NCBI GenBank assembly: GCA_045545875.1 | Contig: JAZQBS010000022.1 | Coordinates: 845-64,844, forward strand | DNA length: 64,000 bases | Direction: 5' to 3' | Source of the DNA: Bacteroidales bacterium | Lineage (GTDB): Bacteria; Bacteroidota; Bacteroidia; Bacteroidales; UBA3663 | Shown: piece after piece, positions 3,802 through 61,862 of the stretch | How the letters are laid out: each line of letters opens with the position of its first letter | Numbering within the stretch: the first letter of the stretch is position 1 | Program-made: the position numbers and the translations under genes | Notes under the pieces: generated by a model | Databases searched by the model: none | What the model saw: the letters and a program-made list of their open reading frames with translations, nothing else | What the model was told of the DNA's origin: nothing

Positions 3802-3828
3802 GGATTTTAAGGGATATTTGGGGATACG

Positions 3829-3864: not shown

Positions 3865-3910
3865 TACCATCTTTATAATTAATACACGTTATGAAACGTC
3901 GGGGAGTGTA

Positions 3911-4085
3911 GGGTTAAGAGGGGTTCTGAAGGGTTCGAGGGGTTCTGAAGGGTTCGAGGGGTTCGAATGGTTGCGATGACATCGCAACAAACTGAACGAG
4001 GGGGACCTTTCGAACTATTCGCTCTGAGCTCTGCTCGCGTGGAGCGAAGCGTAACAACCTTTCGAACCGTTCTGAACCACGAGGG
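3911..4085 (-). repeat. long imperfect inverted repeat of 10-nt GGTTCGA/GGTTCTGA words in the fructokinase 3' UTR
   Basis: The left arm is GGGTTAAGAG GGGTTCTGAA GGGTTCGAGG GGTTCTGAAG GGTTCGAGGG GTTCGAATGG. A perfect 19-nt palindrome GTTGCGATGACATCGCAAC sits at 3970-3988. The right arm carries complementary words (CCTTTCGAAC, CGTTCTGAACC). Confidence 0.8.
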
Positions 4086-4982: not shown

Positions 4983-5113
4983 AGGGGGATAAAGGGGAGT
5001 AAAAAGGGAGTTAAAGGGACAAATGCATTTCTTGAACAGGACCTGCTTGGACAAGCGGTAGTAACGTCCCTTTTATAACTCTTTTACTACCCTATTACTA
5101 CTCTTTTACTACC
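4983..5113 (-). repeat. structured intergenic element (purine-word arm / loop / pyrimidine-word arm), copy 1
   Basis: Arms are at 4983-5020 and 5066-5113 with a 45-nt loop. The 24-nt core CAAGCGGTAGTAACGTCCCTTTTA at 5052-5075 is identical to 6408-6431. Confidence 0.8.
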
Positions 5114-6278: not shown

Positions 6279-6285
6279 TTTTTAT

Positions 6286-6469
6286 AAAGGAATTAAAGGG
6301 GAGTAAAAAGGGAGTTAAAGGGGAGTAAAAAAGGAGTTAAAGGGACAATGGTTCAATTAACAATTAACAATTAATAAATAATAATTGTTTGTTTGACCCA
6401 AACTCGTCAAGCGGTAGTAACGTCCCTTTTACTACCCTTTTATAACTTTTTTACTACCCTTTTACTACC
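6286..6469 (-). repeat. structured intergenic element, copy 2 (larger loop containing TTAACAATTAA words)
   Basis: The left arm at 6286-6346 is made of AAAGGGGAGTA/AAAAGGGAGTT words. The right arm at 6422-6469 is made of CCCTTTTACTA words. It shares the same 24-nt core as copy 1. Confidence 0.8.
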
Positions 6470-8281: not shown

Positions 8282-8289
8282 CAAAGATA
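8282..8289 (-). promoter_or_regulatory. -7 promoter box (TATCTTTG on the minus strand)
   Basis: Exact TAnnTTTG match about 55 nt upstream of the GH32 ATG. Confidence 0.45.
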
Positions 8290-10703: not shown

Positions 10704-10763
10704 AATTATGATTTTGAGGAAAGGACTGCGGGGTCGCGACTCCCCGCAGTTTAATCTATAAAA

Positions 10764-12776: not shown

Positions 12777-12825
12777 AATTAACAATTAATAATTAACAAT
12801 TAACAATTAATTTTGGGGTTCCCTT

Positions 12826-14499: not shown

Positions 14500-14594
14500 A
14501 TGATTTTCAATTAACAATTAATAATTAACAAATAACAATTAATAATTAACAATTAACAATTAATGATTATCAAGTAATAATTAATAATTGTTGG
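14500..14594. repeat. TTAACAATTAA-type AT-word tandem repeat filling the SusC-SusD spacer
   Basis: The sequence is TTAACAATTAATAATTAACAAATAACAATTAATAATTAACAATTAACAATTAATG...AATAATTAATAATTGTTGG. The words are self-complementary (AATT/TTAA cores) with a 10-11-nt period. Confidence 0.8.
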
Positions 14595-17500
14595 TTAGAA
14601 TGCTACGTTAAGACCGAAGGAGAGAGTACGCGAACGTGGATAGGCACCGTTGTCCTCGCGGCAGCCCCAGCCACCGAGATTGAGTTCGGGATCGAGACCG
14701 CTGTAATCGGTGATGGTGAAGATGTTCTCAAGCTGGGCAAAGAGGTTGAGGTTGGCCACCTTGATGCGGTTGCAGAACTTCGAAGGAATGTCGTAACCGA
14801 GCTTGATGTACTTCATCTTGAGGTAGGAACCATCTTCGACGAAGTAGGTTGACATGCGCTTTTCGTCATTGCTGTCGTTGTAGGTGAGGGCAGGGATGGT
14901 AGCGCCGGTGTTGTTGGGTGTCCAGGCATCGAGGATGGCTGTGCCACGGTTGGTATAGGTGTTGCCTGAGCTTACAAACTCGAGCTGACGCTTGTTCGAA
15001 TTGTAGATGTCGAAACCGAATTCGCCCGTAAAGAACATGCTGAGGGTAAGACCCTTCCATGAGAAGTCGAGGTTGAGACCTGCGGTGAAGTCGGGATTCG
15101 GATCACCGATGATGGCACGGTCCTCAGAGGTGATGACGCCGTCGCCATTGATGTCGCGGTACTTCAGACGACCGATGCCCTTACCACCCTGAATAGCGGA
15201 GTTGGAAACCTCTTCGGCATTCTGGAAGATGCCATCGACGATGTAGCCGTAGTAAACGCCCATGGGTTCGCCTTCGATGATGCGGATGTCCTCGCCATCG
15301 GAGTGCTTGCTATCGGAGATCTTCACCACCTTGTTGCGATAGGCCGAGAAGTTGGCCGAAGCACTCCAGCTGAAACCATTGGAATATTCGGGGGAACGAT
15401 AGTCGAGCTGGAACTCAAGACCGGTGTTCTCCATCTCGCCCTGGTTGAGGTAGATGACTGCATTTTCGCCGGCTACGGTAAGTACGGGAGGCTGATAGAG
15501 CATGTCGGTGGTCTTCTTGTAGTACCAGTCGGCGCTCAGGCCGAGGGCACCGTGGAAGAACTGCATGTCGAGACCGACGTTGGTCTGCGTGGTGGTCTCC
15601 CACTTGAGGTCCTTGTTGCCTGTATAGGATACCTTGATACCCGAAACGACGTTGGTGTTGGTACCATTGAGGTCGTAAGACGAGTTGCCTGGATCGTAAG
15701 CATAGAGGCTGTAGTAGGCAGTCGGGTCGCCGATGGCGCTCTGGTTACCGTTCTGTCCCCAACCGAAACGAATCTTCAGGTCGGTGAGGAAGTCATTCTC
15801 CTTCCAGAAAGCCTCAGCGGTGGGACGCCAGGCGAGGGTGAAGGCTGGGAAGATGCCCGAGTTGTTGTCCTTATGGAGACGCGAGGTGGCGTCACGACGT
15901 ACGGTGAAGCTGGCGAGATAGCGGTCAGCAAAGTTGTAGTCAGCCTTGAAGAAGTAGCTGAAGAGAGCCCATTCGGCCTTCGAGCCACCATTGGTCTGAT
16001 GACCGGTGCCTGCATCGAGCACCATGAAATACTTATCTTCGAAAGCATAGCCATCGCGGAAAGCCGACATGCCGTCGCTCTTGTAACCGATGGCCTCGAT
16101 ACCTGCCAGGCCAACGAGGTTGTGCTTGCCCCAATTGCCGACATAGGTAGCAGTGTTGGTCCAGGTCCAGGTGTCGCCCTGTCCGTAGGCACGGCTTACC
16201 GAAACGGAAGCATCGCCATCGGTGGCATGGATCTTGTGACCATAATTATTATTATTGTATTGTACGTGCTCGATACCGATATTCGACTTGAGGGTGAGTC
16301 CCTTGACGGGCTTCCACTCGGCGAAGGCATTGCCGAAGATACGCCAGCTCTCGCTGCGGTTGTCCTTGGCATTGTAGAGGCTCTGCATGGGGTTAGCATA
16401 ATCGGAGCCTGCTATCACCATCGGATCGGAGAAGAGTCCATTGCTCTGGTAGGTGGGGATGCCGGGGTGCTGGAGCATGGCCAGCGAAGCGATGCCACGG
16501 TCGCCTGCCGAAGCGTCGTAGTTCTGCATCCACTTGGCCACCATGAGGTTTTCGCCTACGGTGAACCACTTGCTTACGTTATAGGTGCTGTTGAGACGGC
16601 CGCTGAAGCGCTGATAGAAAGTCTCCTTCTGGATACCGTCCTGGTTGATGTAGTTGACCGAGAACATCATCGTGCCCTTCTCGCCACTGTTGCTGACGCT
16701 GGCGTTCATGTTGTGGGTCCAAGCGGTGCGGTAGATGACGTCCTGCCAGTTGTTGTTGCCCAGTTCGTAACCGCTGGCGCTGGTGCTGCGAAGCGTGCCA
16801 TTGCCGCTGCCGTCGAAGCTGTAGAGGTCGGTGTTGATGGCACCCAGTGCATTGTCGTTGGCCATGGCCTGGTAATAGACACCACCCCACTGCTGTGCAT
16901 TGAGCAGGTCGTACTTGCTGGCGATGGTCTGCATCGAAGCGCTGTAGCCGACATTGACCGACAGACGGTCGCCCTTGCCGCGCTTGGTGGTGATGATGAC
17001 TACGCCGTTGGCGGCACGTGAACCGTAGATAGAAGCCGAGGCTGCATCCTTGAGGACCTGGATGCTCTCGATGTCGGCGGGGTTGAGGGAGTTAAGGTTT
17101 TCGGTCGAAGCCACACCATCGATGACGTAGAGCGGGGAACTGTTGTTGATGGTACCCATACCACGTACACGGATGTTGGAACCGCCGCCACCAGGAGCTG
17201 CATCGGTGGTGATGCTTACGCCGGGGAGTCGGCCCTGCATGGAGTTGACCATCGAGGGACTACCTTCGGAGGTAGGTTTCTTCATGTCCATCACCGAGAT
17301 GGCGCCCGTGAGGTCGGCCTTGCGCTGCACGGTGTAGCCCACGACGACGAACTCCTCGAGCATCTCAGCATCTTCGCTGAGGACGATGTTCATCTGAGCT
17401 TCGGGCTTCAACTGCTGGCTTTGGAAGCCGATGTAAGAGATCGTGATGCTCTCGGTGTTCTGCGGCACTTCGAGCATGAAGTTGCCGTCGAAGTCTGTCA

Positions 17501-17660
17501 TTGTGCCAGTAGTGGTGTTACCGGTCACATAGACCGAGGCACCGATGATGGGTTCGCCGTCGGTCTTCGAAATGACGTTGCCACGGACAGTCATTGTCTG
17601 ACCGATGGCCAGCGCGGCGGTGCAGAGCACCATGACTGTAATCAAAAGGAATCGTTTCAT
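14595..17660 (-). CDS. SusC/RagA-family TonB-dependent transporter
   Basis: 1021 aa. It has an N-terminal carboxypeptidase-regulatory-like domain (TVRGNVISKTDGEPIIGASVYV), a TonB box/plug region (EEFVVVGYTVQRK) and a C-terminal aromatic residue. Confidence 0.95.
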   Translation of the reverse strand: MKRFLLITVMVLCTAALAIGQTMTVRGNVISKTDGEPIIGASVYVTGNTTTGTMTDFDGNFMLEVPQNTESITISYIGFQSQQLKPEAQMNIVLSEDAEMLEEFVVVGYTVQRKADLTGAISVMDMKKPTSEGSPSMVNSMQGRLPGVSITTDAAPGGGGSNIRVRGMGTINNSSPLYVIDGVASTENLNSLNPADIESIQVLKDAASASIYGSRAANGVVIITTKRGKGDRLSVNVGYSASMQTIASKYDLLNAQQWGGVYYQAMANDNALGAINTDLYSFDGSGNGTLRSTSASGYELGNNNWQDVIYRTAWTHNMNASVSNSGEKGTMMFSVNYINQDGIQKETFYQRFSGRLNSTYNVSKWFTVGENLMVAKWMQNYDASAGDRGIASLAMLQHPGIPTYQSNGLFSDPMVIAGSDYANPMQSLYNAKDNRSESWRIFGNAFAEWKPVKGLTLKSNIGIEHVQYNNNNYGHKIHATDGDASVSVSRAYGQGDTWTWTNTATYVGNWGKHNLVGLAGIEAIGYKSDGMSAFRDGYAFEDKYFMVLDAGTGHQTNGGSKAEWALFSYFFKADYNFADRYLASFTVRRDATSRLHKDNNSGIFPAFTLAWRPTAEAFWKENDFLTDLKIRFGWGQNGNQSAIGDPTAYYSLYAYDPGNSSYDLNGTNTNVVSGIKVSYTGNKDLKWETTTQTNVGLDMQFFHGALGLSADWYYKKTTDMLYQPPVLTVAGENAVIYLNQGEMENTGLEFQLDYRSPEYSNGFSWSASANFSAYRNKVVKISDSKHSDGEDIRIIEGEPMGVYYGYIVDGIFQNAEEVSNSAIQGGKGIGRLKYRDINGDGVITSEDRAIIGDPNPDFTAGLNLDFSWKGLTLSMFFTGEFGFDIYNSNKRQLEFVSSGNTYTNRGTAILDAWTPNNTGATIPALTYNDSNDEKRMSTYFVEDGSYLKMKYIKLGYDIPSKFCNRIKVANLNLFAQLENIFTITDYSGLDPELNLGGWGCREDNGAYPRSRTLSFGLNVAF

Positions 17661-17703
17661 TTGCGTTTGGTTTTAAAATTAAAGATGTATGAGGTTTTTT
17701 TGT

Positions 17704-17742
17704 AGGGTTCGAAAGGTTCGAAGGGTTCGAAGGGTTTGAAAG
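17704..17742 (-). repeat. GGTTCGAA word repeat inside the susC 5' leader
   Basis: AGGGTTCGAA AGGTTCGAAG GGTTCGAAGG GTTTGAAAGG lies between the -7 box (17758-17765) and the ATG (17660). Confidence 0.8.
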
Positions 17743-17757
17743 GATAATTTTGCGGTG

Positions 17758-17765
17758 CAAAGATA
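17758..17765 (-). promoter_or_regulatory. -7 promoter box (TATCTTTG on the minus strand) for the fructan susC operon
   Basis: Exact TAnnTTTG match 98 nt upstream of the susC ATG. Confidence 0.5.
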
Positions 17766-17803
17766 CGGGCATTTGAAAAAAGCAAATGAAACGAATGATG
17801 CAC

Positions 17804-17886: not shown

Positions 17887-20784
17887 CTAGTTATTTCCTG
17901 TTTTTCTCTTCACCAATTCGTTGGGCATTTCGCCGAAAAAGTCCTTATAGCACTTGGTGAAATAGCTTGGAGCGGTGAAACCTACGGAATAGGCCACCTG
18001 GGCAATGGTGTCGTCGCCCTGAGCCAACATCTGCTGTGCCCGCTTGAGTCGCATGTTGCGAATGAGTTCGACAGGCGAATAGTTGGTCAGCGCCTTGGTC
18101 TTGCGATAGAGTTGTGCACGGCTCATGCCCATCATGTCGCCCAACTGCTCCACACCGAAGTCCGAATCGCTGAAACTGCGCTCGATGATGTCCTTCATCT
18201 TGACAAGGAACTTGTCGTCGAGGGAGGAGGAGGGGGTTCTGAGGGGTTCTGAGGGGTTCGAAGAGTTCGAGGGGTTCGAAAGGTTGCTCCCGTTGGTCGC
18301 GGCCGGGCGAAGCGAGATGCCCGAAGAACCGAAGAAGTCGCGCACGCGGTTATGATTGTTGACCAGCGAACGGAGCTGGGCACGCAGCACGTCGGCATTG
18401 AAGGGCTTCGACATGTAGGCGTCGGCACCACCTTCGGCCAGACCCTTGACGCGCTGTTCGTCCATGGCATTGGCAGTGAGCATCAGGATGGGGATGTGGC
18501 AGGTGTTAACCTCCTGCTTGAGACGGCGACAACACTCGATGCCGTCCATCACAGGCATCATCATGTCGCAGACGATCACGTCGGGCACGGTTCGCATCGC
18601 CTTGCCCACACCCGTCAGTCCGTCGCCTGCCGTGATGACACGATAGTGTTCGCCCAGCAGCATCTGCATATACTGACGCAGGTCGGCATTGTCGTCGATG
18701 ACCAGCACCAGGGGCTTGGGTTCGCTCTCAATAACGTTCTCCCCTTCAAATGAATCGCCCAACTCGGTCTCGATGGTGGCTGCATCAATCTGCAGACTGC
18801 CTGCATCGACCGTTTCGTCCTCGGTCACGGGTACGCGTGGGATGGTGACCGTGAAGATCGTGCCTGTACCTTCGGTCTGGTTCTGCACTTCGATGGTGCC
18901 ACCATGCAGTTCGACGAAACTCTTTGCCACAGCGAGGCCGATGCCCGATCCTTCATGACGTGCCGAATCGACCTGATAGAAGTTTTCGAAGATGCGCTGG
19001 ATGTGCTCCACGTTGATGCCGGGACCGGTGTCAGAGACCCGCAAGATTATGCGGGGGTTTGAGGGGGTCGAAGGGTTCGAAAGGTTCGAGGGGGTTGAGG
19101 TTGAGAGGGAGAGGGTGATCTTTCCATTTTCGGGGGTGAACTTGAAGGCATTGCCCATGAGGTTGAAGAAGACGCGCTCGAGCTTAGGCACGTCTGCCAT
19201 AGTACGGTAGTCGCCATCGTCGGCAGAAAAGTCCAGTTTGATGTGCTTCTTGTAGGCGAGTCCCTTAAAGTAGCCGAAGCTGGTCTGACAAGCCTGGCGC
19301 AGATCGACAGGCTTCAGGTCGAGGTCGAGCTTTCCGCTCTCGAGTTTGCGGAAGTCGAGCAACTGGCCCACCAGTCGCTGCAGTACCTTGACGTTCTTCA
19401 ACGCCAGGTTCAGCAGTTGCGTCGCCTCAGGGTCCTTGCCTCCGGCACCGTCGAGCTCGCCGCGGTCGAGTTTCTGCTGTATCTGTTCCAAGGGTGCCGA
19501 AATGAGCGTCAACGGCGTGCGGAAGTCATGGCTCACGTTGGTGAAGAATGCAATCTTCGCCTTGGTGGCCTCCTCGACCTGCTGGCTCAGGCGCTTGAGC
19601 TGGATGTTCTGCTCGGCAAGCTGGTCACGCTGAGCCTTGAGCAATGCCTTCTGGCGGTTCAGGCTTTCGCCCAGACGACGTTTCTGCCGATAGCTGCTGT
19701 AATAGAACAGAAGGAACAGGAGCGCCATCGCCAGCAGTGCCAGCAGCGCGTACATCAGCGTGCGTTCGAGGTCGAGCTGCTGCCAGTAGGAATCGGCACG
19801 CGCCTGCAGCATCTTCACGGTCTCGATCTGGTGGTCCACTTCGCGATAGACGTTGTCGATGCTCTTGGCAGCACCCATGTCGATGAGCGACGTGGGCAGC
19901 ACCACATCGCGCTCGAAGGGCTCGCCGCGCAGGATCTTCATCGCCGTCTGCACAATCAGGTCACCGCCTGTGATGTAGGTGGCCGACACGTCGATCGTGC
20001 CGTTACGGATGGCTTCGATGCCATTGTCCGTGCCTGTCAGGCCATCCACGCCCATGATGAAGATCTTATGGTCGAGCCGGGCACTTTGCAGGGCACGGCT
20101 TGCCCCGATGGCCATCTGGTCGTTCTGTGCCAGTATCACCTTGATGTCGGGATGCTGCGCGAGCACCTTCTGCACCTCGGCTTCGCCCCTGTCGCGCTTC
20201 CATGCTCCCATGCATTGCACGAACTGATAACGGTCGCCCGTGTCGCCGAGCGATTCGACGAGGCCCTGATGACGCAATTCCTGGGGCGTCGAGCCTATCA
20301 GGCCCATCACCTCGAGCACCTTGCCGCCTTGGGGCAACACCCTTTGCAGGTACTCGCCCTGCAGCTTGCCCACCTCAAGGTTGTCGCCGCCCACGAAAGC
20401 CGTATATTTGTCGCCCGTCACCTTTCGGTCGGCCACAATCACGGGGATGCCTGCATCGAATGCCTTCGACACGGCGGGCGTGAGCGAGTCGGCACGGTTG
20501 GGCGAAACCACGAGCAGATCGACGCCCTGGGCGATGAAGTAGTCGATGTCGCGCGCCTGGCGCTCGTTGTCGTCGTCGGCCGAACGCACTTCGAGGGTGA
20601 CACCCGGGTAGAACAGCAGTTCGCGGTGCATCTCCTCGTTGAGTTTGGTGCGCCAGGCATCGTCGCTGCATTGCGACACGCCGATGCGGTAGTCGGCAGT
20701 GGTGGTTTCCCCGCACGACATGATGCACAGGGCAATGGTCAGCAGCGACAGAAATATAACAATAAGATAAAGATGTCGTTTCAT
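17887..20784 (-). CDS. hybrid two-component system regulator with a periplasmic sugar-binding (PBP type 1) sensor domain; BT1754-like fructose sensor
   Basis: 965 aa. It has an N-terminal PBP-like domain (YRIGVSQCSDDAWRTKLNEE...), a TM segment, an H-box (SHDFRTPLT), an HATPase (SDTGPGI), a receiver domain (LVLVIDDN...DMMMPVMDG) and a C-terminal AraC HTH. Two low-complexity S/N/P inserts are encoded by GGTTCGAA words. Confidence 0.9.
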   Translation of the reverse strand: MKRHLYLIVIFLSLLTIALCIMSCGETTTADYRIGVSQCSDDAWRTKLNEEMHRELLFYPGVTLEVRSADDDNERQARDIDYFIAQGVDLLVVSPNRADSLTPAVSKAFDAGIPVIVADRKVTGDKYTAFVGGDNLEVGKLQGEYLQRVLPQGGKVLEVMGLIGSTPQELRHQGLVESLGDTGDRYQFVQCMGAWKRDRGEAEVQKVLAQHPDIKVILAQNDQMAIGASRALQSARLDHKIFIMGVDGLTGTDNGIEAIRNGTIDVSATYITGGDLIVQTAMKILRGEPFERDVVLPTSLIDMGAAKSIDNVYREVDHQIETVKMLQARADSYWQQLDLERTLMYALLALLAMALLFLLFYYSSYRQKRRLGESLNRQKALLKAQRDQLAEQNIQLKRLSQQVEEATKAKIAFFTNVSHDFRTPLTLISAPLEQIQQKLDRGELDGAGGKDPEATQLLNLALKNVKVLQRLVGQLLDFRKLESGKLDLDLKPVDLRQACQTSFGYFKGLAYKKHIKLDFSADDGDYRTMADVPKLERVFFNLMGNAFKFTPENGKITLSLSTSTPSNLSNPSTPSNPRIILRVSDTGPGINVEHIQRIFENFYQVDSARHEGSGIGLAVAKSFVELHGGTIEVQNQTEGTGTIFTVTIPRVPVTEDETVDAGSLQIDAATIETELGDSFEGENVIESEPKPLVLVIDDNADLRQYMQMLLGEHYRVITAGDGLTGVGKAMRTVPDVIVCDMMMPVMDGIECCRRLKQEVNTCHIPILMLTANAMDEQRVKGLAEGGADAYMSKPFNADVLRAQLRSLVNNHNRVRDFFGSSGISLRPAATNGSNLSNPSNSSNPSEPLRTPSSSLDDKFLVKMKDIIERSFSDSDFGVEQLGDMMGMSRAQLYRKTKALTNYSPVELIRNMRLKRAQQMLAQGDDTIAQVAYSVGFTAPSYFTKCYKDFFGEMPNELVKRKTGNN

Positions 20785-35634: not shown

Positions 35635-37641
35635 ATGACCCTCCAAGAATTCCAAGCCGACATCCGAGCCGGCATCCCCGACTACCTGCCCGAACCGCAG
35701 GCATATGATCCTGATATCAACCATGCACCACGTCGCAAGGACATTCTGACTCCCGAACAGAAGCGTCTTGCCTTGCGCAATGCCTTGCGATATTTCCCCA
35801 AGAAGTTCCACGCTGTACTTGCACCCGAGTTTGCGGAAGAACTCCGCACCTATGGCCGTATTTACATGTACCGCTACCGTCCCCGTTACGAGATGAAGGC
35901 ACGCCCCATCGGCGACTATCCGCATCGAAGCCAGCAGGCAGCTGCCATCATGCTGATGATCCAGAACAACCTCGATCCTCGCGTTGCCCAGCATCCTCAC
36001 GAACTCATCACTTACGGAGGCAACGGCTCGGTCTTCATGAACTGGGCACAGTATCGCCTCGTGATGAAATACCTCAGCGAGATGACCGACCATCAGACCC
36101 TTGTTATGTACTCGGGACATCCCCTTGGACTTTTCCCCTCACACCCTGGTGCTCCACGCGTCGTTGTCACCAACGGAATGGTGATTCCCAACTATTCAAA
36201 ACCCGATGATTGGGAACGCGACAACGCACTCGGCGTAAGCCAATACGGACAGATGACCGCAGGTTCCTATATGTATATAGGTCCGCAAGGCATCGTGCAT
36301 GGTACCACCATCACTGTGCTCAACGCTGCCCGACGTGTCATGCAAGGCCGCAAGGACTGCATTCCGCTCTTCGTCAGTTCAGGTCTTGGCGGCATGAGTG
36401 GTGCCCAGCCCAAAGCCGGCAACATCGCAGGCGTGGTGAGCGTCATCGCCGAAATCAATCCCAAGGCGGCAGAGAAACGATACGAACAAGGATGGGTCGA
36501 TGAGCTGCATACCAATCTCGACGAACTCATCCCCGCTGTGCGCAAAGCCGTAGCCGAAAGGCGCACCGTCTCAATGGCCTATGTCGGCAACGTCGTTGAC
36601 CTTTGGGAACGTCTTGCCGACGAGGATATCGAGGTGAACCTCGGTTCCGACCAGACTTCGCTCCACAACCCGTGGGCAGGTGGCTACTATCCCGTGGGAC
36701 TCACTTTCGAAGAAAGCAAGCGCATGATGGCCGACGATCCCGCCCGCTTCAAGCAATGTGTCGAGGCTTCGTTGCGTCGACAGGTGGCTGCCATCAATCG
36801 GCTTACGGCCCGCGGTATGTACTTCTTTGACTACGGCAACGCATTCCTCCTCCAGTCCAGCCGTGCAGGAGCCGACATTATGCTGCCCGATGGCCGTTTC
36901 CGCTATCCTTCCTACGTGCAGGACATCATGGGCCCCATGTTCTTCGACTATGGCTTTGGACCATTCCGCTGGGTATGCACCTCATGTGACCCGCATGACC
37001 TTGAGGTCACCGACCGACTTGCGACCGAAGTGCTCGAAGACGAGCGTCGTCATGCCCCCGCTGACATCGCAAACCAGCTCGACGACAACATCCACTGGAT
37101 ACGCGAAGCAGGTCGCAACCACCTCGTCGTGGGTTCACAGGCACGCATCCTTTATGCCGACTGCGAAGGCCGCACACGCATTGCCTTGGCCTTCAACGAT
37201 GCCGTACGTCGCGGCGAACTGCATGCGCCCGTCGTACTGGGTCGTGATCATCACGACGTTTCAGGCACCGATTCGCCTTTCCGCGAGACATCCAACATCT
37301 ACGACGGCTCGCAGTTCTGTGCCGACATGGCCATACAGAACGTCATCGGTGACAGTTTCCGCGGAGCCACCTGGGTCAGCATCCACAATGGCGGCGGAGT
37401 AGGCTGGGGCGAAGTCATCAACGGTGGCTTCGGTATGGTGGTCGATGGCTCAGATCAAGCCGATCGCAACATTCGCGAGATGCTCTTCTGGGACGTCAAC
37501 AACGGCATCACCCGGCGCGCATGGGCTCGCAACCAAGGCTCCATCGACGCTATCCGTCGCGAGATGGATCGCACCCCCGACCTCCAAGTTACCCTCCCCA
37601 ATTTTGTCGATGACGATATCATCGATTCGGTTTCCTTCTAG
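35635..37641 (+). CDS. hutU: urocanate hydratase (long, ~670-aa type)
   Basis: 668 aa. Urocanase features are visible throughout (...GGMSGAQPKA..., ...HAPVVLGRDHHDVSGTDSP...). It lies next to hutH and hutI. Confidence 0.92.
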   Translation: MTLQEFQADIRAGIPDYLPEPQAYDPDINHAPRRKDILTPEQKRLALRNALRYFPKKFHAVLAPEFAEELRTYGRIYMYRYRPRYEMKARPIGDYPHRSQQAAAIMLMIQNNLDPRVAQHPHELITYGGNGSVFMNWAQYRLVMKYLSEMTDHQTLVMYSGHPLGLFPSHPGAPRVVVTNGMVIPNYSKPDDWERDNALGVSQYGQMTAGSYMYIGPQGIVHGTTITVLNAARRVMQGRKDCIPLFVSSGLGGMSGAQPKAGNIAGVVSVIAEINPKAAEKRYEQGWVDELHTNLDELIPAVRKAVAERRTVSMAYVGNVVDLWERLADEDIEVNLGSDQTSLHNPWAGGYYPVGLTFEESKRMMADDPARFKQCVEASLRRQVAAINRLTARGMYFFDYGNAFLLQSSRAGADIMLPDGRFRYPSYVQDIMGPMFFDYGFGPFRWVCTSCDPHDLEVTDRLATEVLEDERRHAPADIANQLDDNIHWIREAGRNHLVVGSQARILYADCEGRTRIALAFNDAVRRGELHAPVVLGRDHHDVSGTDSPFRETSNIYDGSQFCADMAIQNVIGDSFRGATWVSIHNGGGVGWGEVINGGFGMVVDGSDQADRNIREMLFWDVNNGITRRAWARNQGSIDAIRREMDRTPDLQVTLPNFVDDDIIDSVSF

Positions 37642-37672
37642 AATATCTAGATTATCTAGACAATCTAGAAAA
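37637..37672. repeat. TCTAGAnnn nonamer repeat (4 copies) spanning the hutU stop and the hutU-hutH spacer
   Basis: The copies are TCTAGAATA TCTAGATTA TCTAGACAA TCTAGAAAA. The hutU TAG stop lies within the first copy. Confidence 0.8.
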
Positions 37673-44450: not shown

Positions 44451-44474
44451 ATCGAATTAACAATTAACAATTAG

Positions 44475-44541: not shown

Positions 44542-44616
44542 GGAAGTTTTTGGGAAATAGGCAAATTTTGGGACAATTATTTAAATTAACAATTAATAAT
44601 TAACAATTAACAATGG

Positions 44617-46350: not shown

Positions 46351-46437
46351 GTTCTGAATGGTTCTGAGCGGTTCTGAATGGTTCAAGGGTCAAAGTAGCC
46401 TTTCAAACCTTTTGAACTTTCAGAACCTTTCTTAACC
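46351..46437 (-). repeat. GGTTCTGAA-word inverted repeat filling the SusC-SusD spacer
   Basis: The left arm is GTTCTGAATG GTTCTGAGCG GTTCTGAATG GTTCAAGGGT. The right arm is CCTTTCAAACC TTTTGAAC TTTCAGAACC TTTCTTAACC. Confidence 0.8.
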
Positions 46438-46445
46438 TTATTATT

Positions 46446-54070: not shown

Positions 54071-55537
54071 TTAGTGTGTGATGCCTTTCGGCGTATTCTC
54101 ACGTCCGAAGTCGAAGAGCTCCGACTCTGTGTGGCAACTGTCGATGATGGCGGTGAGCTCAGCAGCGATGTCGGGATGCTCAGCGGCTACGTTGTGGTCC
54201 TCATGGATGTCGTTGCTAAGGTCATAGAGTTCGAAGACGGGCTGGTCGGTGCCCACCTGGAGGCGCACACCCTTCCATTGGCCACGGCGCACGGCCTGCT
54301 TGCCGTTCTGCTCGTGGAACTCCCAATAGAGGCTCTCGTGACTCTGCTGGCCTTCCTGGCCCAAGAGCGTCGGAACGAACGAAATGCCATCGGTCAGGAG
54401 CGGCTTCTCGTAACCTGCCAATTGGGCGAAAGTGGGAAGCATGTCCCAGAAGGCGATGATGTGGTCGCAATCGGTTCCAGCAGCCTTGATATGGCCGGGC
54501 CAGCGGATCAGGAAGGGCATACGGATGCCTCCTTCATAGAGATCGCGCTTGATGCCGCGATAGGGGCCGTAGCTGTCGAAATAGTCTGGATTGGCTCCAC
54601 CTTCGCGATGCGGGCCATTGTCGGAGGTGAAGATGAGCACGGTATTGTCGGCGATACCCAGCGAATCGAGCAGCTGCATCACATCGCCCACATAGCGGTC
54701 GAAGCGCGTCACCATCGAAGCAAACGATGCCAATGGTCGCGCCGTGGCTCCGTAGGCGCCACGACGATTCGGGTCTTTGGGGGCATAAGGCACCTCATCG
54801 GCTTCGGGAATCAGGCGGCAATACATGTCATAGATGCTGTCGTGCGGCAGAATCAATTCGGCATGGGGCAGCGTATAGCTGAGGAAGGTGAAGAACGGCT
54901 GGTCGGCATGCTGGCGAATGAACTTGAGTGCCTGCTGATGGATGGTGTCGGCCGAATAGGTGACTTCGCGCTGCTCGTAGTTTTGCGGCAAGTCAACGCG
55001 TGCTTCATTGTTCCACAGATGGTCGGGATAATAGTCGTGAGCCAATGTCTGGCAATTGTAGCCGAAGAACTGGTCGAAGCCCACCTTTGTGGGATCGGAC
55101 ACCGAGCCGGGATAACCCAAGCCCCACTTGCCGAAACATCCGGTGGCATAGCCCTGCTCCTTCAGCATCGTTGCCATGGTGAATGTACCTTCGGGCATTG
55201 CCACCTGTCCTTCGGGATCCACGCCCTTGTTGCCACGAACGAAGGCATGACCCGTATGCAGTCCGGTCATCAGCGAGCATCTCGAAGGAGCCGACACAGC
55301 AGTTCCGGCATATGCCTGCGTGAAGCGCAAGCCTTGCTCCTGCAGTCGGTTGAGATTGGGTGTCTGAATCAGTTTCTGGCCATAGGGCTGGATGTCGCCG
55401 ATGCCGAGGTCGTCGGCAAGGATATAGATGATGTTGGGATGAGCAGGAGTTTCGTCCTTGGGCTTCTGGCTGCTGCAACTGGTGAGCGAAGCGACGGCGC
55501 CCATGAGGCAGCCGCCGGCGGAGAGGAGGTATTTCAT
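54071..55537 (-). CDS. S1-family sulfatase, Ser-type (formylglycine from Ser)
   Basis: 488 aa with lipobox LTSC. The active-site box VSAPSRCSLMTG has Ser in the C/S-x-P-x-R position. It also contains ADDLG and GKWG(L). Confidence 0.85.
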   Translation of the reverse strand: MKYLLSAGGCLMGAVASLTSCSSQKPKDETPAHPNIIYILADDLGIGDIQPYGQKLIQTPNLNRLQEQGLRFTQAYAGTAVSAPSRCSLMTGLHTGHAFVRGNKGVDPEGQVAMPEGTFTMATMLKEQGYATGCFGKWGLGYPGSVSDPTKVGFDQFFGYNCQTLAHDYYPDHLWNNEARVDLPQNYEQREVTYSADTIHQQALKFIRQHADQPFFTFLSYTLPHAELILPHDSIYDMYCRLIPEADEVPYAPKDPNRRGAYGATARPLASFASMVTRFDRYVGDVMQLLDSLGIADNTVLIFTSDNGPHREGGANPDYFDSYGPYRGIKRDLYEGGIRMPFLIRWPGHIKAAGTDCDHIIAFWDMLPTFAQLAGYEKPLLTDGISFVPTLLGQEGQQSHESLYWEFHEQNGKQAVRRGQWKGVRLQVGTDQPVFELYDLSNDIHEDHNVAAEHPDIAAELTAIIDSCHTESELFDFGRENTPKGITH

Positions 55538-55543
55538 TTTATT

Positions 55544-55730
55544 AGGGATATTAAGAGATATTTGGAGAAATTAAGGGATATTTGGGGATATTAAGGGATA
55601 TTTAGGGACGTTACTTTCGCCAGTAGAGAATGAGGTCAAGAAAACAATTGTTAATTGTTAATTATTAATTGTTATTTGAACCATCGTCCCTAAAAATCCC
55701 TTACAGTCCCTTAGAAACCCTTACATTCCC
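55544..55730 (-). repeat. structured intergenic element (AGGGATATTT-word arm / loop with AT words / complementary CCCTTAnnnn-word arm)
   Basis: The left arm is at 55544-55610 and the right arm at 55685-55730. GGGACGTTACTTTCGCC at 55605-55621 is the reverse complement of the GCGnnAGTAACGTCCC core seen at 5055-5070 and 6411-6426. Confidence 0.8.
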
Positions 55731-57359
55731 TTATTTCAGCAATCGATCATATCCGAGCGAGCGCATGCCTTGAGCAACGCTCTTGGCATTCTGCTGTGCA
55801 CCCGTCAGGCTGGTGTGGGTGTGGTCGTGGTTGTAGTAGGCCTTGGCGGCTTCCTGACCGATGCTATCGAGATAGTCGGCAGTGATGTTGTGTACGTCGA
55901 TGAAGGGCACACCAGTGGCTTCGACCACTTCACGATACCACTTGCCGTAGGTGTCATTGCGACGCTCGATCTTGCCACCAGGCCACTCGTTGCGTGGGGT
56001 AAGGCTAAGCAGAATTGGAGTAGCACCCTTCTCGCGCGCGTCCTGGATCATCTTCTTCAAATACCAGCCGAAGCTATAGACGGCCTCGTATTCGCCCGTG
56101 GCTTCGAGCTTGAAGACCTTGGTCGAATCGGTGCCCAAGGCGATTTCGCCACGTGCCTTGCCCTTTTCGATGTCGCCCACATCGTTGTGGCCAAACTGCA
56201 GGAAGACGATGTCGCCCGGCTGCAGCGAGTTATAGACCTTCTCCCAGCGACGCTCGTTGAGATAGGTGCGGCACGAACGGCCTGCCATGGCTTCGTTCTG
56301 GAAGATGACGGTAGCGGTGTCGAAGACGGTGTATGCCTGGCTGCCCCAGCCCCACATGCCGTTGGGATCGTTGTCGGAGTTCTTGCAGGTGGAGTCGCCG
56401 CAGAGCCAAACGACGGTCTTGCCCGGTGTGCGGTTCACATCGACGTGGATGGGCGTAAGGTCCTTGAGATACTCCTTAAGCGGACAGTTCTCGCACTGCT
56501 GGATAGCAAGCGCTGCGCTGTAGGCGTTGTTCTCAGCACCGAAGCGCGAGGTGTGGATCTTATCGACATAGTAGAACATGTACTCGGTCTTCCAATGTCC
56601 GAACTTCTCGAGACGCAAAGCACTTACGCCTTCGAGGTCAATCCACGGCACGTTCATCTCTTCGGCCACCGCCTTTCCCCACGGGGTGAACGTGTTCCAC
56701 TTGCGGGTGATGGTGGTCTCGTTGTCCCAAGAGTTGCGGGGCGTCAACGAAGCAATGAGCGGATAAGCGCCCTTGGCACGCACGTCGTTGATGAACATGC
56801 GCATATACTGTCCGTAGCTATAGACGGTCTCGACACGTCCGTTCCAGTCCTTCGAGCGACAGTCATGGAGCGTCACCGTGACGCAGGTATCGGGGTCGAT
56901 GCCGGCGATGCTGTTGCGTGCGGTCCAGGTGTCGAGGGGACCATTGTCATTGTGACCCAGTTCGATGAGCACATAGTCGCCAGCCTGCACGCCCTTGAGT
57001 ACATCGGGCCAAAGCTGGTTGTAGAACGTGCGGCTCGACGTTCCGCCGAGGGCATGGTTCTCGACGGTGATGCGCTCTTCGTCGAAATACTGATAGGCGA
57101 AGGCACCCCAACCCCATTGGCCGTTGTTACCATTGCCCTTGGTGCCGGTGCGCATCGTGCTGTTTCCGACGAGGAAGAGCACAGGATTGTTGCCCTTGCG
57201 GCTGGAGCCAGGAACGGGACGTGCATATTTCGAATCGGCATCCTCCGACTGCTTGTAGTTATCGACAGTGGTATCGTTGATGCCGTTGGCATCCTTCACT
57301 TGGGCTCCACCAACAAAGGCAGCGGAGAAAAGGGCTAGAGTGATGAGGGTTCTTTTCAT
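55731..57359 (-). CDS. tandem double SGNH/CE12-type esterase (rhamnogalacturonan acetylesterase-like)
   Basis: 542 aa. Two repeats each have block I (LVGNSTM / LCGDSTC), block III (GHND) and block V (D..H). A signal peptide is present. Confidence 0.8.
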   Translation of the reverse strand: MKRTLITLALFSAAFVGGAQVKDANGINDTTVDNYKQSEDADSKYARPVPGSSRKGNNPVLFLVGNSTMRTGTKGNGNNGQWGWGAFAYQYFDEERITVENHALGGTSSRTFYNQLWPDVLKGVQAGDYVLIELGHNDNGPLDTWTARNSIAGIDPDTCVTVTLHDCRSKDWNGRVETVYSYGQYMRMFINDVRAKGAYPLIASLTPRNSWDNETTITRKWNTFTPWGKAVAEEMNVPWIDLEGVSALRLEKFGHWKTEYMFYYVDKIHTSRFGAENNAYSAALAIQQCENCPLKEYLKDLTPIHVDVNRTPGKTVVWLCGDSTCKNSDNDPNGMWGWGSQAYTVFDTATVIFQNEAMAGRSCRTYLNERRWEKVYNSLQPGDIVFLQFGHNDVGDIEKGKARGEIALGTDSTKVFKLEATGEYEAVYSFGWYLKKMIQDAREKGATPILLSLTPRNEWPGGKIERRNDTYGKWYREVVEATGVPFIDVHNITADYLDSIGQEAAKAYYNHDHTHTSLTGAQQNAKSVAQGMRSLGYDRLLK

Positions 57360-57384
57360 AGAAGTGTGTGCTTGGTTATTTTTT

Positions 57385-57438
57385 TCTAGATTTTCTAGAA
57401 GCTCTAGATTTTCCAGATTATCTAGAGGTTCTAGAGAT
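57385..57438. repeat. TCTAGAnnn nonamer repeat (6 copies) in the spacer between the two esterase genes
   Basis: The copies are TCTAGATTT TCTAGAAGC TCTAGATTT TCCAGATTA TCTAGAGGT TCTAGAGAT. Confidence 0.8.
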
Positions 57439-58721: not shown

Positions 58722-58729
58722 CAAAGATA
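58722..58729 (-). promoter_or_regulatory. -7 promoter box (TATCTTTG on the minus strand) for the esterase/sulfatase/GH operon
   Basis: Exact match 21 nt upstream of ATG 58701. Confidence 0.45.
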
Positions 58730-58927: not shown

Positions 58928-59839
58928 ATGAAACAATTTCTACTTACTTCTGCATTGGCCCTTGGCGCTGCCATCGCCTTTGCCGAGACCGAGACTCCTC
59001 TCACCCTCGTAGAGGGACACACCCTCCTCATCTCCGAAATCGACGGACTGGGCGCAGCTGACACGGACATCGTGCGCTTCTACATCGTCAACAATTCAGC
59101 CGACAGCCGCGATACTTGGGGAATCGGTGGTTTTGCCAATTCCGACAACTGGACTCCTATCGTGCAGTGGACAGGCATGCCTGGCAGCAGCTGGACTTAT
59201 GAGTACACCGTAGCTGCCATCAAGGAAGTCGCCGGCACCACTCCAGGAGAGTATCATGACGTGGGGATCACCATCAACATCTACAACGATTGTGCAGTCG
59301 ATCATGTGACCCTCGTAGGCGACATCGCTCCACAAACCGAAAAGACCCTTTGGGAAGGCGAATACACCTTCGACGAGAGTTGGAGCGGTTCAGTCAGCAT
59401 CGGCAAGATTGACGTGAAGGCAGGCGACAAGCTCCTCATCACTGCCGAGCCCGTGGAGGCTGTAAGTTGGGAATGGGGCGGACAGTTATTCGTCAAGTCT
59501 CTCGCCGACGGCTGGGGTGCTATTGCTCCCACCATCAACGTCAATGCTGCTGACACTTATACGGTAGCCATCACCGACACCGATATCACAGTTGAGCCTT
59601 ACAAACTCGATCCCTACACTTCGAACATGGTGGCAGAACTCACCAACTATGGTCTCGTCCTTCAGGGAATCGACGCCAAGGTAACCAAGGTGGTGCTCGT
59701 GACCAGTGGCGAAACTTCCATCAGCGAAGTGAAGGCTGCTCCTGTTGCCAATAGCGCTATCTACAACATCGCTGGCCAGAAGCTCAACGCAGCCAAGGGA
59801 CTCTGCGTTGTGAACGGCAAACTTATTCTGGTGAAATAA
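58928..59839 (+). CDS. secreted protein with a T9SS C-terminal sorting domain (function unknown)
   Basis: 303 aa from ATG 58928; the track start is a TTG. The signal peptide is MKQFLLTSALALGAAIAFA. The C-terminus ...SAIYNIAGQKLNAAKGLCVVNGKLILVK matches the type-A Por/T9SS tail pattern. Confidence 0.75.
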   Translation: MKQFLLTSALALGAAIAFAETETPLTLVEGHTLLISEIDGLGAADTDIVRFYIVNNSADSRDTWGIGGFANSDNWTPIVQWTGMPGSSWTYEYTVAAIKEVAGTTPGEYHDVGITINIYNDCAVDHVTLVGDIAPQTEKTLWEGEYTFDESWSGSVSIGKIDVKAGDKLLITAEPVEAVSWEWGGQLFVKSLADGWGAIAPTINVNAADTYTVAITDTDITVEPYKLDPYTSNMVAELTNYGLVLQGIDAKVTKVVLVTSGETSISEVKAAPVANSAIYNIAGQKLNAAKGLCVVNGKLILVK

Positions 59840-59913: not shown

Positions 59914-59920
59914 GTCGCAA

Positions 59921-60280
59921 GCACTCTGTCGGCCGTCAGAGTGTTATTTCTAAATGCGGAAGCATTATGTCGGCCGTTAGAGTGCTATTTCCGAGCGAAG
60001 AGAGTATTCTGTCGGCCGTCAGAGTGTTATTTCCGAGCGAAGAGAGCATTATGTCGGACGTCAAAGTGTTATTTCCGAGCAGAGAAAGCACTCTGTCGGC
60101 CGTTAGAGTGTTATTTCCGAGAGTAGGAAGTACTCTGTCGGCCGTCAGAGTGTTATTTCCGAGCGAAGAAAGCATTCTGTCGGCCGTCAGAGTGTTATTT
60201 CCAAGCGAAGGAAGTACTCTGTCGGCCGTCAGAGTGTTATTTCCGAGCGAACAAAGTACTCTGTCGGCCGTCAGAGTGTG
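59921..60280. repeat. tandem array of a 42-nt unit (8 full + 1 partial copy), each with a ~20-22-nt imperfect palindrome
   Basis: Unit boundaries fall at 59921, 59962, 60004, 60046, 60088, 60130, 60172, 60214 and 60256. The consensus is G[CT]A[CT]TCTGTCGGCCGTCAGAGTGTTATTTCCGAGCGAAGAAA, with palindrome ACTCTG-T-CGGCCG-T-CAGAGT. The last copy runs into TGTTTTTC. Confidence 0.95.
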
Positions 60281-60525: not shown

Positions 60526-60607
60526 GTACGGGTAGTGGGACTCGAACCCACACGCCTCGCGACACCAGATCCTAAGTCTGGCCTGTCTACCAATTTCAGC
60601 ATACCCG
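60526..60607 (-). tRNA. tRNA-Leu(UAG): tRNA-Leu, anticodon UAG, 82 nt with a long variable arm; CCA not encoded
   Basis: Folded by hand. Acceptor stem GCGGGTA/TACCCGT with a G1-U72 pair. D-loop AAAUUGGUAGA. Anticodon stem CCAGA/UCUGG with loop CUUAGGA. Variable arm about 14 nt. T-arm GTGGG TTCGAGT CCCAC. Discriminator A. Confidence 0.9.
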
Positions 60608-60625
60608 CCTATCGAATTTGCGGGC

Positions 60626-60671: not shown

Positions 60672-61796
60672 TTATTCACTTTTGGTCGTATCTCGCAGTG
60701 CTCGAGTATTCCGTATGATATATTGGCGTGCCGCTTCGATGATGTCATCGCGATGATTCTGGTATGCCGACACACTATCCATATCGACTTTGAGACCAGG
60801 AGATGGATCGATGCCCGACTCGGTGCTGTTTCCATCAGGATCGGTCATTGGGCACGCTGAGAAACGAATAGACCAGCCATTGGGCAAGACACTTTCGAAA
60901 GGCAGGCCCGAGCCGCCTCCTGTACGATCGCCGCAAATCTTAATCATCTTGGGGAAAAGAATACCGAGCGTATCGGGTGTCATCGTTCCATCGAGGGCAC
61001 GCATAAGCTGCACGAAGTTGTTGGCAGCGCTGAAACAATGGCGATTGGTCAGAATCACCACTGGACGTACCGAAGCATCCCACATCATCCGATCGTCGGC
61101 AGGTTCGATATAGAGAGGTTCTGCCTTGGAAAAGTCGTTGTGACCACGTCCAGTCTTATGACGGATGTAACCACTCAGCGTCTTCTCGGTGGCAAAACGC
61201 TCGGCCAACGTGACAGCATTGGACAGCGAGCCACCTCCATTGTTGCGAATATCGAGTATCAATCCATTGGCATTGCGGATGAGAGCAAGGATATAGTCGA
61301 GGTTCGTTGCACCGATGGCACTGTTGAACGAACTGTAACGAACATAAGCCACCGAGTCGCGACGATACATCACATACTGCATACCTGCCGTGTACCAGTA
61401 ATTCGTGCCAAGATAATATTCACGAATCAGGTTGTCGTCGTAGTTGGTGGGATAATCCTCATACCACGACCAATAGCGAGCAATATTGAAAGGAGTATAG
61501 ACGTTTATGTGGCCGTCGCGCAACGTGTCAACCATCTCGTCGAGCACATTGAAAAGCTCGAACTGTGTCTTGATGGAATCTTTGAAAAGAGGAGCATATT
61601 TGCGATGAACACCCTCCCAATCGACACCCTTCTCATCGAAGAAGCAATAATGCTCATCAAGTGTCTGCCAGAAGGCTTCGAAGTTGCCACGCAAACTATC
61701 GTCCTGCTCCAACTGGTCATCGTCGAGACAAGCGGTGAAGAGGCAGCCTGCCGACAACAAGCAACAAAGAGCTGTGAACCATGAACCCTTAACCAT
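60672..61796 (-). CDS. S41-family C-terminal processing (tail-specific) peptidase, lipoprotein
   Basis: It has the S41 motif LILDIRNNGGGS and the lipoprotein signal MVKGSWFTALCCLLSAGCLFTAC. I prefer the fourth in-frame ATG (61796). The three upstream ATGs (61862, 61838, 61817) lie inside the heptamer repeat. Confidence 0.8.
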   Translation of the reverse strand: MVKGSWFTALCCLLSAGCLFTACLDDDQLEQDDSLRGNFEAFWQTLDEHYCFFDEKGVDWEGVHRKYAPLFKDSIKTQFELFNVLDEMVDTLRDGHINVYTPFNIARYWSWYEDYPTNYDDNLIREYYLGTNYWYTAGMQYVMYRRDSVAYVRYSSFNSAIGATNLDYILALIRNANGLILDIRNNGGGSLSNAVTLAERFATEKTLSGYIRHKTGRGHNDFSKAEPLYIEPADDRMMWDASVRPVVILTNRHCFSAANNFVQLMRALDGTMTPDTLGILFPKMIKICGDRTGGGSGLPFESVLPNGWSIRFSACPMTDPDGNSTESGIDPSPGLKVDMDSVSAYQNHRDDIIEAARQYIIRNTRALRDTTKSE

Positions 61797-61862
61797 GAAC
61801 CGTGAACCACGAATCATAAACCATGAACCCTTAACCATGAACCGTGAACCATTAATATGCAT
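61773..61862. repeat. CCATGAA heptamer repeat (~12 copies) overlapping the 5' end of the S41 peptidase gene and the 3' end of the upstream gene
   Basis: The sequence is TGTGAAC CATGAAC CCTTAAC CATGAAC CGTGAAC CACGAAT CATAAAC CATGAAC CCTTAAC CATGAAC CGTGAAC CATTAAT. If translated it gives the 7-aa repeat GSRFMVK/GSWFMIR. Confidence 0.85.

Follow-up and report, generated by a model that had tools for sequence, protein, structure and literature searches.

The spacer between the GDSL esterase and sulfatase genes, hereafter E3, is one copy of a dispersed, multi-copy family of mosaic foldback repeats in ruminant-gut Prevotellaceae, a family that has apparently gone undescribed so far. Three family copies and one remnant lie in the window, that is, in the whole 64-kb stretch of the genome analysed here. 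The reading I favour, with a probability of about 0.5, is that E3 is a mosaic foldback repeat whose arm complementarity comes from templated recombinational maintenance together with slippage. The family behaves more like fast-evolving repeat DNA than like a finely tuned RNA switch, and I think that E3 itself is most likely a tolerated or mildly modulating spacer.

E3 fills 193 nt (55538–55730) between the GDSL esterase gene (55731–57359, minus strand) and the sulfatase gene (54071–55537, minus strand; Pfam Sulfatase, E 1e-54). Its left edge is the base adjoining the sulfatase ATG (55535–55537), and the esterase stop codon TAA (55731–55733) sits inside its final word. Its parts are the following.

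55538..55733, minus strand: whole element E3 (subfamily S1), the entire intercistronic gap from sulfatase ATG to esterase stop
55542..55610, plus strand: arm A, seven 10-nt words of the GGGATATTw type with a 20-nt super-period
55605..55621, minus strand: conserved core end GGCGAAAGTAACGTCCC, common to E1 (5060) and E2 (6416)
55611..55684, minus strand: core or loop, 74 nt, the long form of the family core
55646..55678, plus strand: heptamer array within the core, AATTGTT x4.7 (AATTAAC on the minus strand)
55685..55733, plus strand: arm B, CGTCCC followed by CCCTTAnnnn words

An earlier reading made from the sequence alone (the sequence-only reading) had proposed a purine-word arm, a loop with words of another type and a pyrimidine-word arm, and this anatomy is borne out by both repeat searches. 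Tandem Repeats Finder reports period 10 at 55540–55608 (7.0 copies, 76% matches, 85% for the 20-nt super-period), period 7 (AATTGTT) at 55646–55678 (4.7 copies) and period 10 at 55687–55733 (4.7 copies), while the top inverted repeat pairs 55567–55610 with 55685–55728 (44 nt, 75% complementary, 74 nt between). On the mRNA, which corresponds to the minus strand, arm B is the 5' arm, (TAAGGGnnnn)x4 followed by GGGACG; its five GGG tracts with 7-nt loops form a G4 motif, and its TAA every 10 nt gives stops in all three frames. Arm A closes with the half-stem GGGACG (55605–55610) and becomes on the mRNA the 3' pyrimidine arm CGTCCC(TAAATATCCC)n, which ends about 4–6 nt upstream of the sulfatase ATG. 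The core between them reads, on the minus strand, ATGGTTC, then AATTAAC-type heptamers, then TTGACCTCATTCTC...GGCGAAAGTAA. The same heptamer also makes up stand-alone spacers at 12777–12810 and 14508–14589. The two arms are unequal, the sulfatase-start side having two more words than its partner, and they share a recurrent mismatch of about one per word. The proposal that each locus carries matching words on its two arms thus holds in that the arms match each other, but the complementarity is just about 75% and the word counts differ.

The core ties E3 to two further elements of the window. AGTAACGTCCC has three matches in the 64 kb, at 5060 and 6416 on the plus strand and at 55605 on the minus strand, against an expectation of 0.57; 0 of 100 shuffles reach three. 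Because of these strands the core of E3 is inverted with respect to E1 and E2, as had been proposed for the elements at 5.0 and 6.4 kb. The other elements of the window are these.

3802..3826, plus strand: remnant half arm of an S1 element (GGATTTTAAGGGATATTTGGGGATA)
3905..4085, plus strand: a distinct foldback of word arrays (GGGGTTCTGAA / CCTTTCGAACC); its core is its own and includes the hairpin TTGCGATGACATCGCAA
4982..5112, plus strand: E1 (subfamily S3, short core), between the MFS transporter and fructokinase genes
6285..6469, plus strand: E2 (subfamily S3, words GGGAGTAAAAA / CTTTTACTACC, long core)
46351..46439, plus strand: small word-array foldback (GGTTCTGAAT / CTTTCAGAAC), filling the SusC–SusD spacer

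The neighbours of E2, in a fructan PUL, are a GH32 gene and the gene for the MFS transporter, and its core is antisense to transcription. Two contigs of other assemblies overlap the left part of the window, L036 (Prevotellaceae RUG465 MAG, rumen) and L082 (Bacteroidales MAG, sheep omasum). A complete E3-like element stands at positions 722–899 of L082, at the ortholog of the remnant site 3802–3826; the foldback at 3905–4085 is absent from the orthologous site of L082, and no clear target-site duplication is seen there. A short reading frame of 8 codons within the core of E2 and E3 (ATGGTTCAA...) was considered and rejected, as it is not conserved elsewhere and contig L127 has no ATG at this place.

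Beyond the window, a scan of the genome collection with the 14-base core GCGNNAGTAACGTCCC yielded L036 and L082 as its useful results; nearly all of its matches fell by chance in unrelated phyla. In metagenomes, a search with a 24-nt core motif gave 79 stretches. The same closing stem and core ends are found in at least 17 distinct full elements, at about nine or more loci, and copies with homologous arms and core stand at no fewer than nine loci with unrelated flanks. The family core is about 40–100 nt long and is closed by GGGACG/CGTCCC (GGACG/CGTCC being common to all); its ends, ACGwwwGTTC ... AAGGTAwCGTCC, are conserved, and an (AATTAAC)n expansion is optional. It is flanked by arms that are inverted tandem stacks of 9–11-nt words, such that on either strand the 5' arm is built of GGGA+N6 and the 3' arm of N6+TCCC. 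Some full-length copies carry extra outer inverted modules, for example CTCAAGTTTCGCATTT. The arm words define the following groups.

S1 (includes E3): words GGGATTCTAA / TAAATATCCC
S2: words GGGAGTTAAC / GTTAACTCCC
S3 (E1, E2): words GGGAGTAAAAA / CTTTTACTACC
S4: words AGGAGTACA / TGTACTCCT
S5–S7: foldbacks with GGTTCGAA-like words and other cores

S1 to S4 have a homologous core and different arm words. The GGGATATT / CCCTTAGAAT words of E3 recur at several unrelated loci of other genomes. The earlier statement that arm words differ between loci is accordingly correct between subfamilies, but the words are specific to the subfamily and not to the locus.

The sequence-only reading knew of no described element class with these properties, and none was matched here. 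A viral contig scan and BLAST against phage and plasmid records gave no match to the family, and no description of these sequences came up in the literature, whether searched by repeat string or for intergenic repeats of Prevotella and Bacteroides. Across the window, the sole Rfam family reaching its gathering threshold was a tRNA; the hits below threshold, all at E of at least 0.12, were to generic models of long hairpins, namely miRNA precursors and two Listeria sRNAs. CRISPR, integron attC and retron readings were set aside: the period is too short, spacers are lacking, the genes are ordinary operon genes, and no reverse transcriptase or integrase was seen among those scanned with Pfam. When joined flanks lacking the element were looked for, no clean empty site emerged, just the deletion derivative at 3802–3826 and length variants. 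Neither a target-site duplication nor an associated transposase or recombinase was found, which counts against the foldback-repeat model.

How fast such an element changes is seen at the esterase–sulfatase locus itself. An exact look-up of the window's sulfatase protein returned no record, and orthologous contigs with the same gene order were reached via sulfatase homologues of 91–99% amino-acid identity. The neighbouring esterase–esterase spacer, made of TCTAGA words, is conserved among these contigs, whereas the esterase–sulfatase spacer is not: flanking 600-nt gene segments are 88–95% identical at the nucleotide level, and the spacers at the E3 locus are 54–64% identical or not alignable. 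Contigs L205 (99% amino-acid identity) and L212–215 (93%) have an allele of 138 nt, in which the same arms enclose a short core without heptamers; L121/L122 and L208–211 (97–98%) have 103–104 nt of unrelated 8-nt words in its place, and L123–125 (91%) an 84-nt spacer with a different hairpin. Two further contigs, L206 and L207, break inside the element. Between the 193- and 138-nt alleles the number of words changes in one arm alone. Their closing pair shows a compensatory change, GGGACG/CGTCCC versus GGGACA/TGTCCC, which counts against a model of templating only; the other arm substitutions are uncompensated.

The arms and cores of S1 show exchange at the DNA level. The S1 arms are not simple complements of each other but consist of X words (GGGATTCTAA) on one side and the complement of Y words (GGGATATTTA) on the other. 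The form X-core(forward)-Y' is found in E3, L205, L212, L131, L166 and L135b, and the form Y-core(forward)-X' in L082, L129, L154, L172 and L181; since both exist, the core has been inverted relative to homologous asymmetric arms. At locus C, one orthologous site with identical flanks, three cores occur (in L129/L178, in L187 and in L200), that of L200 being reversed. L187 and L192, which are different loci of one metagenome, have cores identical at 83 of 83 nt, whereas L129, the ortholog of L187 with flanks 95–98% identical, differs at 10 of the 83 core positions. Likewise, the E2 core is long in the window and in L036, and L082 has a short, E1-type core with the arms of E2. Arm lengths are unequal and vary between alleles, word numbers changing independently in the two arms.

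Ectopic conversion or recombination through the arms swaps and inverts cores, in a form of concerted evolution, and the same recombination, together with slippage, probably keeps the arms of a subfamily complementary while their words drift. Templated maintenance of this kind would need no selection on the RNA fold. The sequence-only reading had offered selection on a hairpin and templated generation of one side by side; the core swaps and inversions fit templating better, and selection on an RNA hairpin is left unsupported. Some observations sit less easily with templated maintenance. X and Y words stay different in all S1 copies, so that arm-to-arm homogenisation is not frequent, unless the mismatches are selected. 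In 29 of 32 unique pairs of complementary arrays the G-rich arm is the first of the two, a bias for which the templating model does not account; one may speculate that a C-rich arm transcribed second would never expose single-stranded RNA for Rho loading. Finally, of the 20 foldbacks surveyed, 13 are flanked by co-directional genes, which could reflect function rather than tolerance.

The setting of E3 is an ordinary polysaccharide-utilisation operon. Along the minus strand, two esterase genes are followed by those for the sulfatase and the GH106/GH28 glycoside hydrolase, and then by SusC and SusD; the genes scanned with Pfam within about 10 kb of E3 encode esterases, the sulfatase, GH106/GH28, SusC, SusD, an S41 peptidase, a DUF3316 protein and one product without a hit, and no recombinase is among them. 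TAnnTTTG, the Bacteroidota -7 motif, occurs correctly oriented in promoter-like spacers at 8289, 17765, 22451, 29427, 44541, 49810, 58729 and 58855. It occurs on neither strand of 55538–55730, nor in the E1 and E2 spacers, nor in the other tandem-word spacers except as TAATTTTG at 12808, on the non-gene strand. No sigma-70 promoter pattern was found in E3, and a scan of 55300–55950 found no intrinsic terminator (GC-rich stem plus T run). Having no promoter or terminator motif of its own, E3 is therefore probably co-transcribed as an intercistronic spacer in one PUL operon. The closest promoter motif upstream is TATCTTTG at 58729 on the minus strand, and the transcription unit in which E3 lies probably starts at about that position. 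Nor is E3 an isolated oddity, because about 11 promoter-less spacers of the window (30 nt or longer) consist of tandem words, with periods of 7, 9, 10 or 11.

The main alternative is a selected intercistronic RNA hairpin whose arms pair in the mRNA for processing, stability or translational coupling. I regard it as a serious rival, though less likely than templated maintenance. Its first argument is folding, which was compared with 200 dinucleotide shuffles on both strands, with RNA and DNA parameters. The RNA of the sense strand folds at -58.7 kcal/mol (z -5.1) and that of the antisense strand at -66.6 kcal/mol (z -6.4); with DNA parameters z is -5.3 and -6.5 on the two strands. By this prediction, E3 RNA could fold into an imperfect stem some 45 bp long, with the esterase stop and the sulfatase start at its base. 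Nine of the 13 co-directional foldbacks (nine of the 20 surveyed) have both ends within 20 nt of the stop and start codons, and the stops in all three frames of the 5' arm, like the promoter-less spacers of tandem words, would also suit a hairpin that acts in the mRNA.

Its second argument is covariation. In a matrix of complementarity between 5' and 3' arms the diagonal is strongest in 6 of 7 rows, with values of 23.3, 18.8, 17.6 and 14.0 for S1 to S4, as against 4.8–14.8 across subfamilies. In an in-register alignment of 22 elements from four related subfamilies, tested with 500 shuffles, 74.4% of cells are paired and the covariation score is 0.295, whereas the shuffles give 66.5% and 0.174 (0/500 for both measures); slid registers give at most 54% pairing and a score of at most 0.194. 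The arm-level covariation suspected from three loci of the window is thereby given statistical support. A positive test is also what selection on pairing predicts, and to that extent it counts against templating, as does the compensatory closing pair between the E3 alleles. However, the alignment rows form four related groups, so that independent covariation events are few, and the test cannot separate selection from the shared ancestry of the subfamilies.

Other features argue against selection on the RNA fold. Most copies leave roughly one position of each word unpaired (columns 8/73, 18/63 and 28/53), a mismatch that is conserved across copies, and word numbers are unequal between arms. Of 13 co-directional copies, 10 fold less strongly on the sense strand than on the antisense strand; this trend is the reverse of what RNA-level selection would give, but it is not significant, and the copies are not independent. 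The orientation of the core relative to transcription is mixed, sense at five loci and antisense at four. Copies also stand between convergent genes and beside a terminator hairpin, and close strains do without the element at the E3 locus.

A wider variant is that a foldback with arms self-templated by inversion or gene conversion and with exchangeable, orientation-free cores is a modular intercistronic PUL regulator in Bacteroidota, which lack Shine-Dalgarno sequences. It would tune gene ratios in the operons, either through a hairpin/G4 switch or by bringing stop and start codons together, and the tandem-word spacers would belong to the same system; I consider this unlikely. Quite unlikely, too, is a putative protein-binding or bending site at the DNA level, of a BIME-like kind, in which GGG/CCC clamps and A/T blocks phased every 10–11 bp, with super-periods of 20–22 bp, would attract or be wrapped around a nucleoid protein, gyrase or recombinase. 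The periods of 10 and 11 nt are consistent with such a site, as are the super-periods of 20, 21 and 22 nt, to which the heptamers contribute as 3x7. The orientation independence of the core fits double-stranded DNA, and subfamilies that differ in arm words keep the same core ends and closing stem. However, those arm words are wholly different between subfamilies, which leaves no common recognition sequence beyond GGGA/TCCC, and arrays with periods of 8 and 9 nt exist as well.

Two switch models have very little probability. In the first, a programmed invertible, inverton-like switch, a recombinase would flip the core and change downstream expression. The core is indeed found in both orientations relative to the asymmetric arms, with opposite orientations at one orthologous locus (L129 versus L200) in different samples, and the two contig breaks inside the element might be read in the same way. 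But the core has no TAnnTTTG on either strand, the opposite-orientation alleles have cores of different types, as replacement through ectopic conversion would produce, no orientation polymorphism is seen within a sample, and the Pfam-scanned genes within 10 kb of E3 include no recombinase. In the second, the G-rich arm, transcribed first either way, would form a candidate G-quadruplex competing with the hairpin. Candidate motifs were found in E3 by a (G3+N1-8)x4 scan at 55575 (plus strand) and at 55730 and 55720 (minus strand); all canonical motifs of the 64 kb, among them that in the sense 5' arm of E3, fall within word arrays, and the arm order in the unique pairs noted above is as this model would have it. 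Against it, S4, S6 and S7 have GG runs only, and the sense strands of E1 and E2 are without the motif. That the elements are unrelated low-complexity slippage products is hardly credible: tandem 7–11-nt words are common in the spacers of the window and word counts vary between alleles, but the non-repetitive core and closing stem common to loci and samples already contradict it, as do the identical 83-nt cores at two different loci.

Prevotellaceae are among the main fibre degraders of the rumen, and their PUL operons are the functional units of this degradation; the design of the family is unusual, its setting in PUL operons is relevant, and an RNA-hairpin function is possible. A subset of the tandem-word spacers are foldbacks, and these differ between strains whose flanking gene segments are 88–95% identical. 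If they affected mRNA processing or translation, they would provide fast-evolving, strain-specific operon tuning in a phylum without Shine-Dalgarno-based initiation. Even if selfish or neutral, the family would offer a tractable case of arm complementarity kept by concerted evolution of inverted tandem arrays, would mark recombination hot spots, and would be a likely cause of metagenome assembly breaks.

The family belongs to a known kind, that of intergenic palindromic or mosaic repeats. In an inverton, inverted repeats flank a promoter segment (TAnnTTTG -7 motif) that is inverted by a site-specific recombinase. Such invertible promoters are known from Bacteroidales (PMC7641763). The segment of the E3 family likewise occurs in both orientations in a Bacteroidales host, albeit in different samples and with differing core types, but it has no promoter motif, its arms are long arrays of tandem words, and no recombinase was found nearby.

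REP and BIME sequences of Proteobacteria are intergenic, often in operons or at gene 3' ends, palindromic, multicopy, mosaic, strain-variable and co-transcribed. They reach high copy numbers within a genome and are associated with a RAYT (REP-associated tyrosine transposase). The family resembles them in its intergenic and operon position, its palindromes, its copy number, its mosaic modules and its variability between strains. REPs measure 20–40 bp, with a stem of 8–9 bp, a loop of 4–5 nt and a terminal GTAG or CGTC tag (PMC3733652). E3 has CGTC as well, but at the inner arm boundary only, and with arms of 47–69 nt and a loop of 74 nt it lies outside that size definition; no sequence similarity to REPs was seen.

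The Correia/NEMIS MITEs of Neisseria are small, non-coding, multicopy intergenic elements with inverted repeats that fold when co-transcribed. Terminal inverted repeats and multiple unrelated loci are found in the present family too, but no target-site duplication, empty site or partner transposase was observed, and in contrast to typical MITEs it is the core that is conserved and the arms that vary from one subfamily to the next. The BrickBuilt MITE of Porphyromonas gingivalis has a central tandem 23-nt repeat and small inverted-repeat ends (PMC4596501). It shares with the E3 family a Bacteroidota host and a tandem repeat, in an inverse layout, since in the E3 family the repeats are in the arms.

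BOX elements of Streptococcus pneumoniae are modular intergenic repeats whose tandem internal modules, of about 45–60 nt, vary in number; they have stable predicted folds and are co-transcribed. The modularity is alike, whereas BOX has no two complementary word stacks and differs in sequence and host. The Foldback (FB) elements of Drosophila are eukaryotic and kilobase-sized, with inverted arms of tandem sub-repeats, variable arms and loop, and a proneness to recombination. The likeness is one of architecture only and not of homology, and in design Foldback is the closest to the E3 family.

Foldback repeats of the E3 type, in which two inverted arms of tandem short words surround a core, evidently break short-read assemblies: in two independent assemblies of the locus of E3 (the S1 subfamily element filling the esterase-sulfatase spacer, window 55538-55733), the contigs L206 and L207 end inside the element, one of them within the arm and the other within the core. 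At the same spacer, two related stretches carry instead an unrelated array of 8-nt words, ATTTCGGn / ATTCCGGn / TAACGGnA (L121 9897-10000; L208 1398-1500). The sulfatase start is displaced by three codons in both, which indicates that the spacer replacement takes in the first codons of the gene. An element of the family also lies at a rearrangement breakpoint, since the one at L154 14323-14477 shares the element itself and the right flank with three alleles of one orthologous locus (L129, L178 and L187), whereas its left flank is different.

Certain modules are common to different types of spacer. The hairpin module TTGCGATGnCATCGCAACAAACTGAAC, at window 3968-3996 in the core of the foldback 3905-4085, occurs again at L123 5917-6000, within the unrelated esterase-sulfatase spacer allele of L123-125. 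Full-length S1 and S2 elements may in addition bear the outer modules CTCAAGTTTCGCATTTGCTCAACTTGATG and AACTTTCGCAAATACGAAAGTTGATG, a further inverted pair external to the word arms that is absent from E3 and is present in the following elements:

L127 5834-6065, with extra outer modules
L166 3600-3840, with extra outer modules
L135 8340-8560, with extra outer modules
L170 1987, with extra outer modules

Two other spacers of the window consist of 9-nt words around TCTAGA:

37637-37670, TCTAGA-word spacer
57382-57435, TCTAGA-word spacer

This hexamer is found 9 times in the 6.8 kb of intergenic sequence of the window, as against 0 in the 57 kb that are coding. The spacer at 57.4 kb is kept even where the nucleotide identity of strains is as low as about 80%, whereas E3 is not so kept.

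A 9.2-kb segment of the window (8559-17801), which holds the GH32, DUF4960, SusD and SusC genes of a fructan PUL, is missing from the rumen Prevotellaceae RUG465 contig L036, where window position 8558 directly abuts 17802; a TAnnTTTG promoter motif lies near each end of the segment (8289 and 17765). Stand-alone (AATTAAC)n arrays with a 21-nt super-period were located at four positions:

12777-12810, (AATTAAC)n array
14508-14589, (AATTAAC)n array
44455-44473, (AATTAAC)n array
44584-44614, (AATTAAC)n array

Two of these four immediately precede start codons, those of a DUF4960-domain gene and of a SusD-like gene, and at some metagenome loci (L179, L193, L204) both arms of a foldback are heptamer arrays of this type. 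Another heptamer array with a 21-nt super-period, (TGAACCA)x11, sits where the DUF3316 gene meets that of the S41 peptidase (61775-61852); because every unit contains an ATG on the - strand, ORF callers run the peptidase into it.

A 42-nt tandem array (59919-60279; 8.6 copies, 85% matches), each unit of which contains the hairpin CACTCTG-TCGGCCGT-CAGAGTG, is flanked by a gene without Pfam match (58928-59839) and a tRNA (60527-60608, - strand). It recurs in L121 (5294-5711) and has no match in Rfam.

Word arrays are also found within a gene:

17887-20784, - strand, hybrid two-component sensor gene

Its two in-frame arrays of the 9-nt word GGGGTTCGA (18233-18279 and 19054-19093), a word also used by intergenic foldbacks, code for segments rich in S, N and P (SNLSNPSNSSNPSEP...); one such segment lies between the receiver domain and the HTH domain. 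These in-gene arrays recall palindromic elements inserted in genes.
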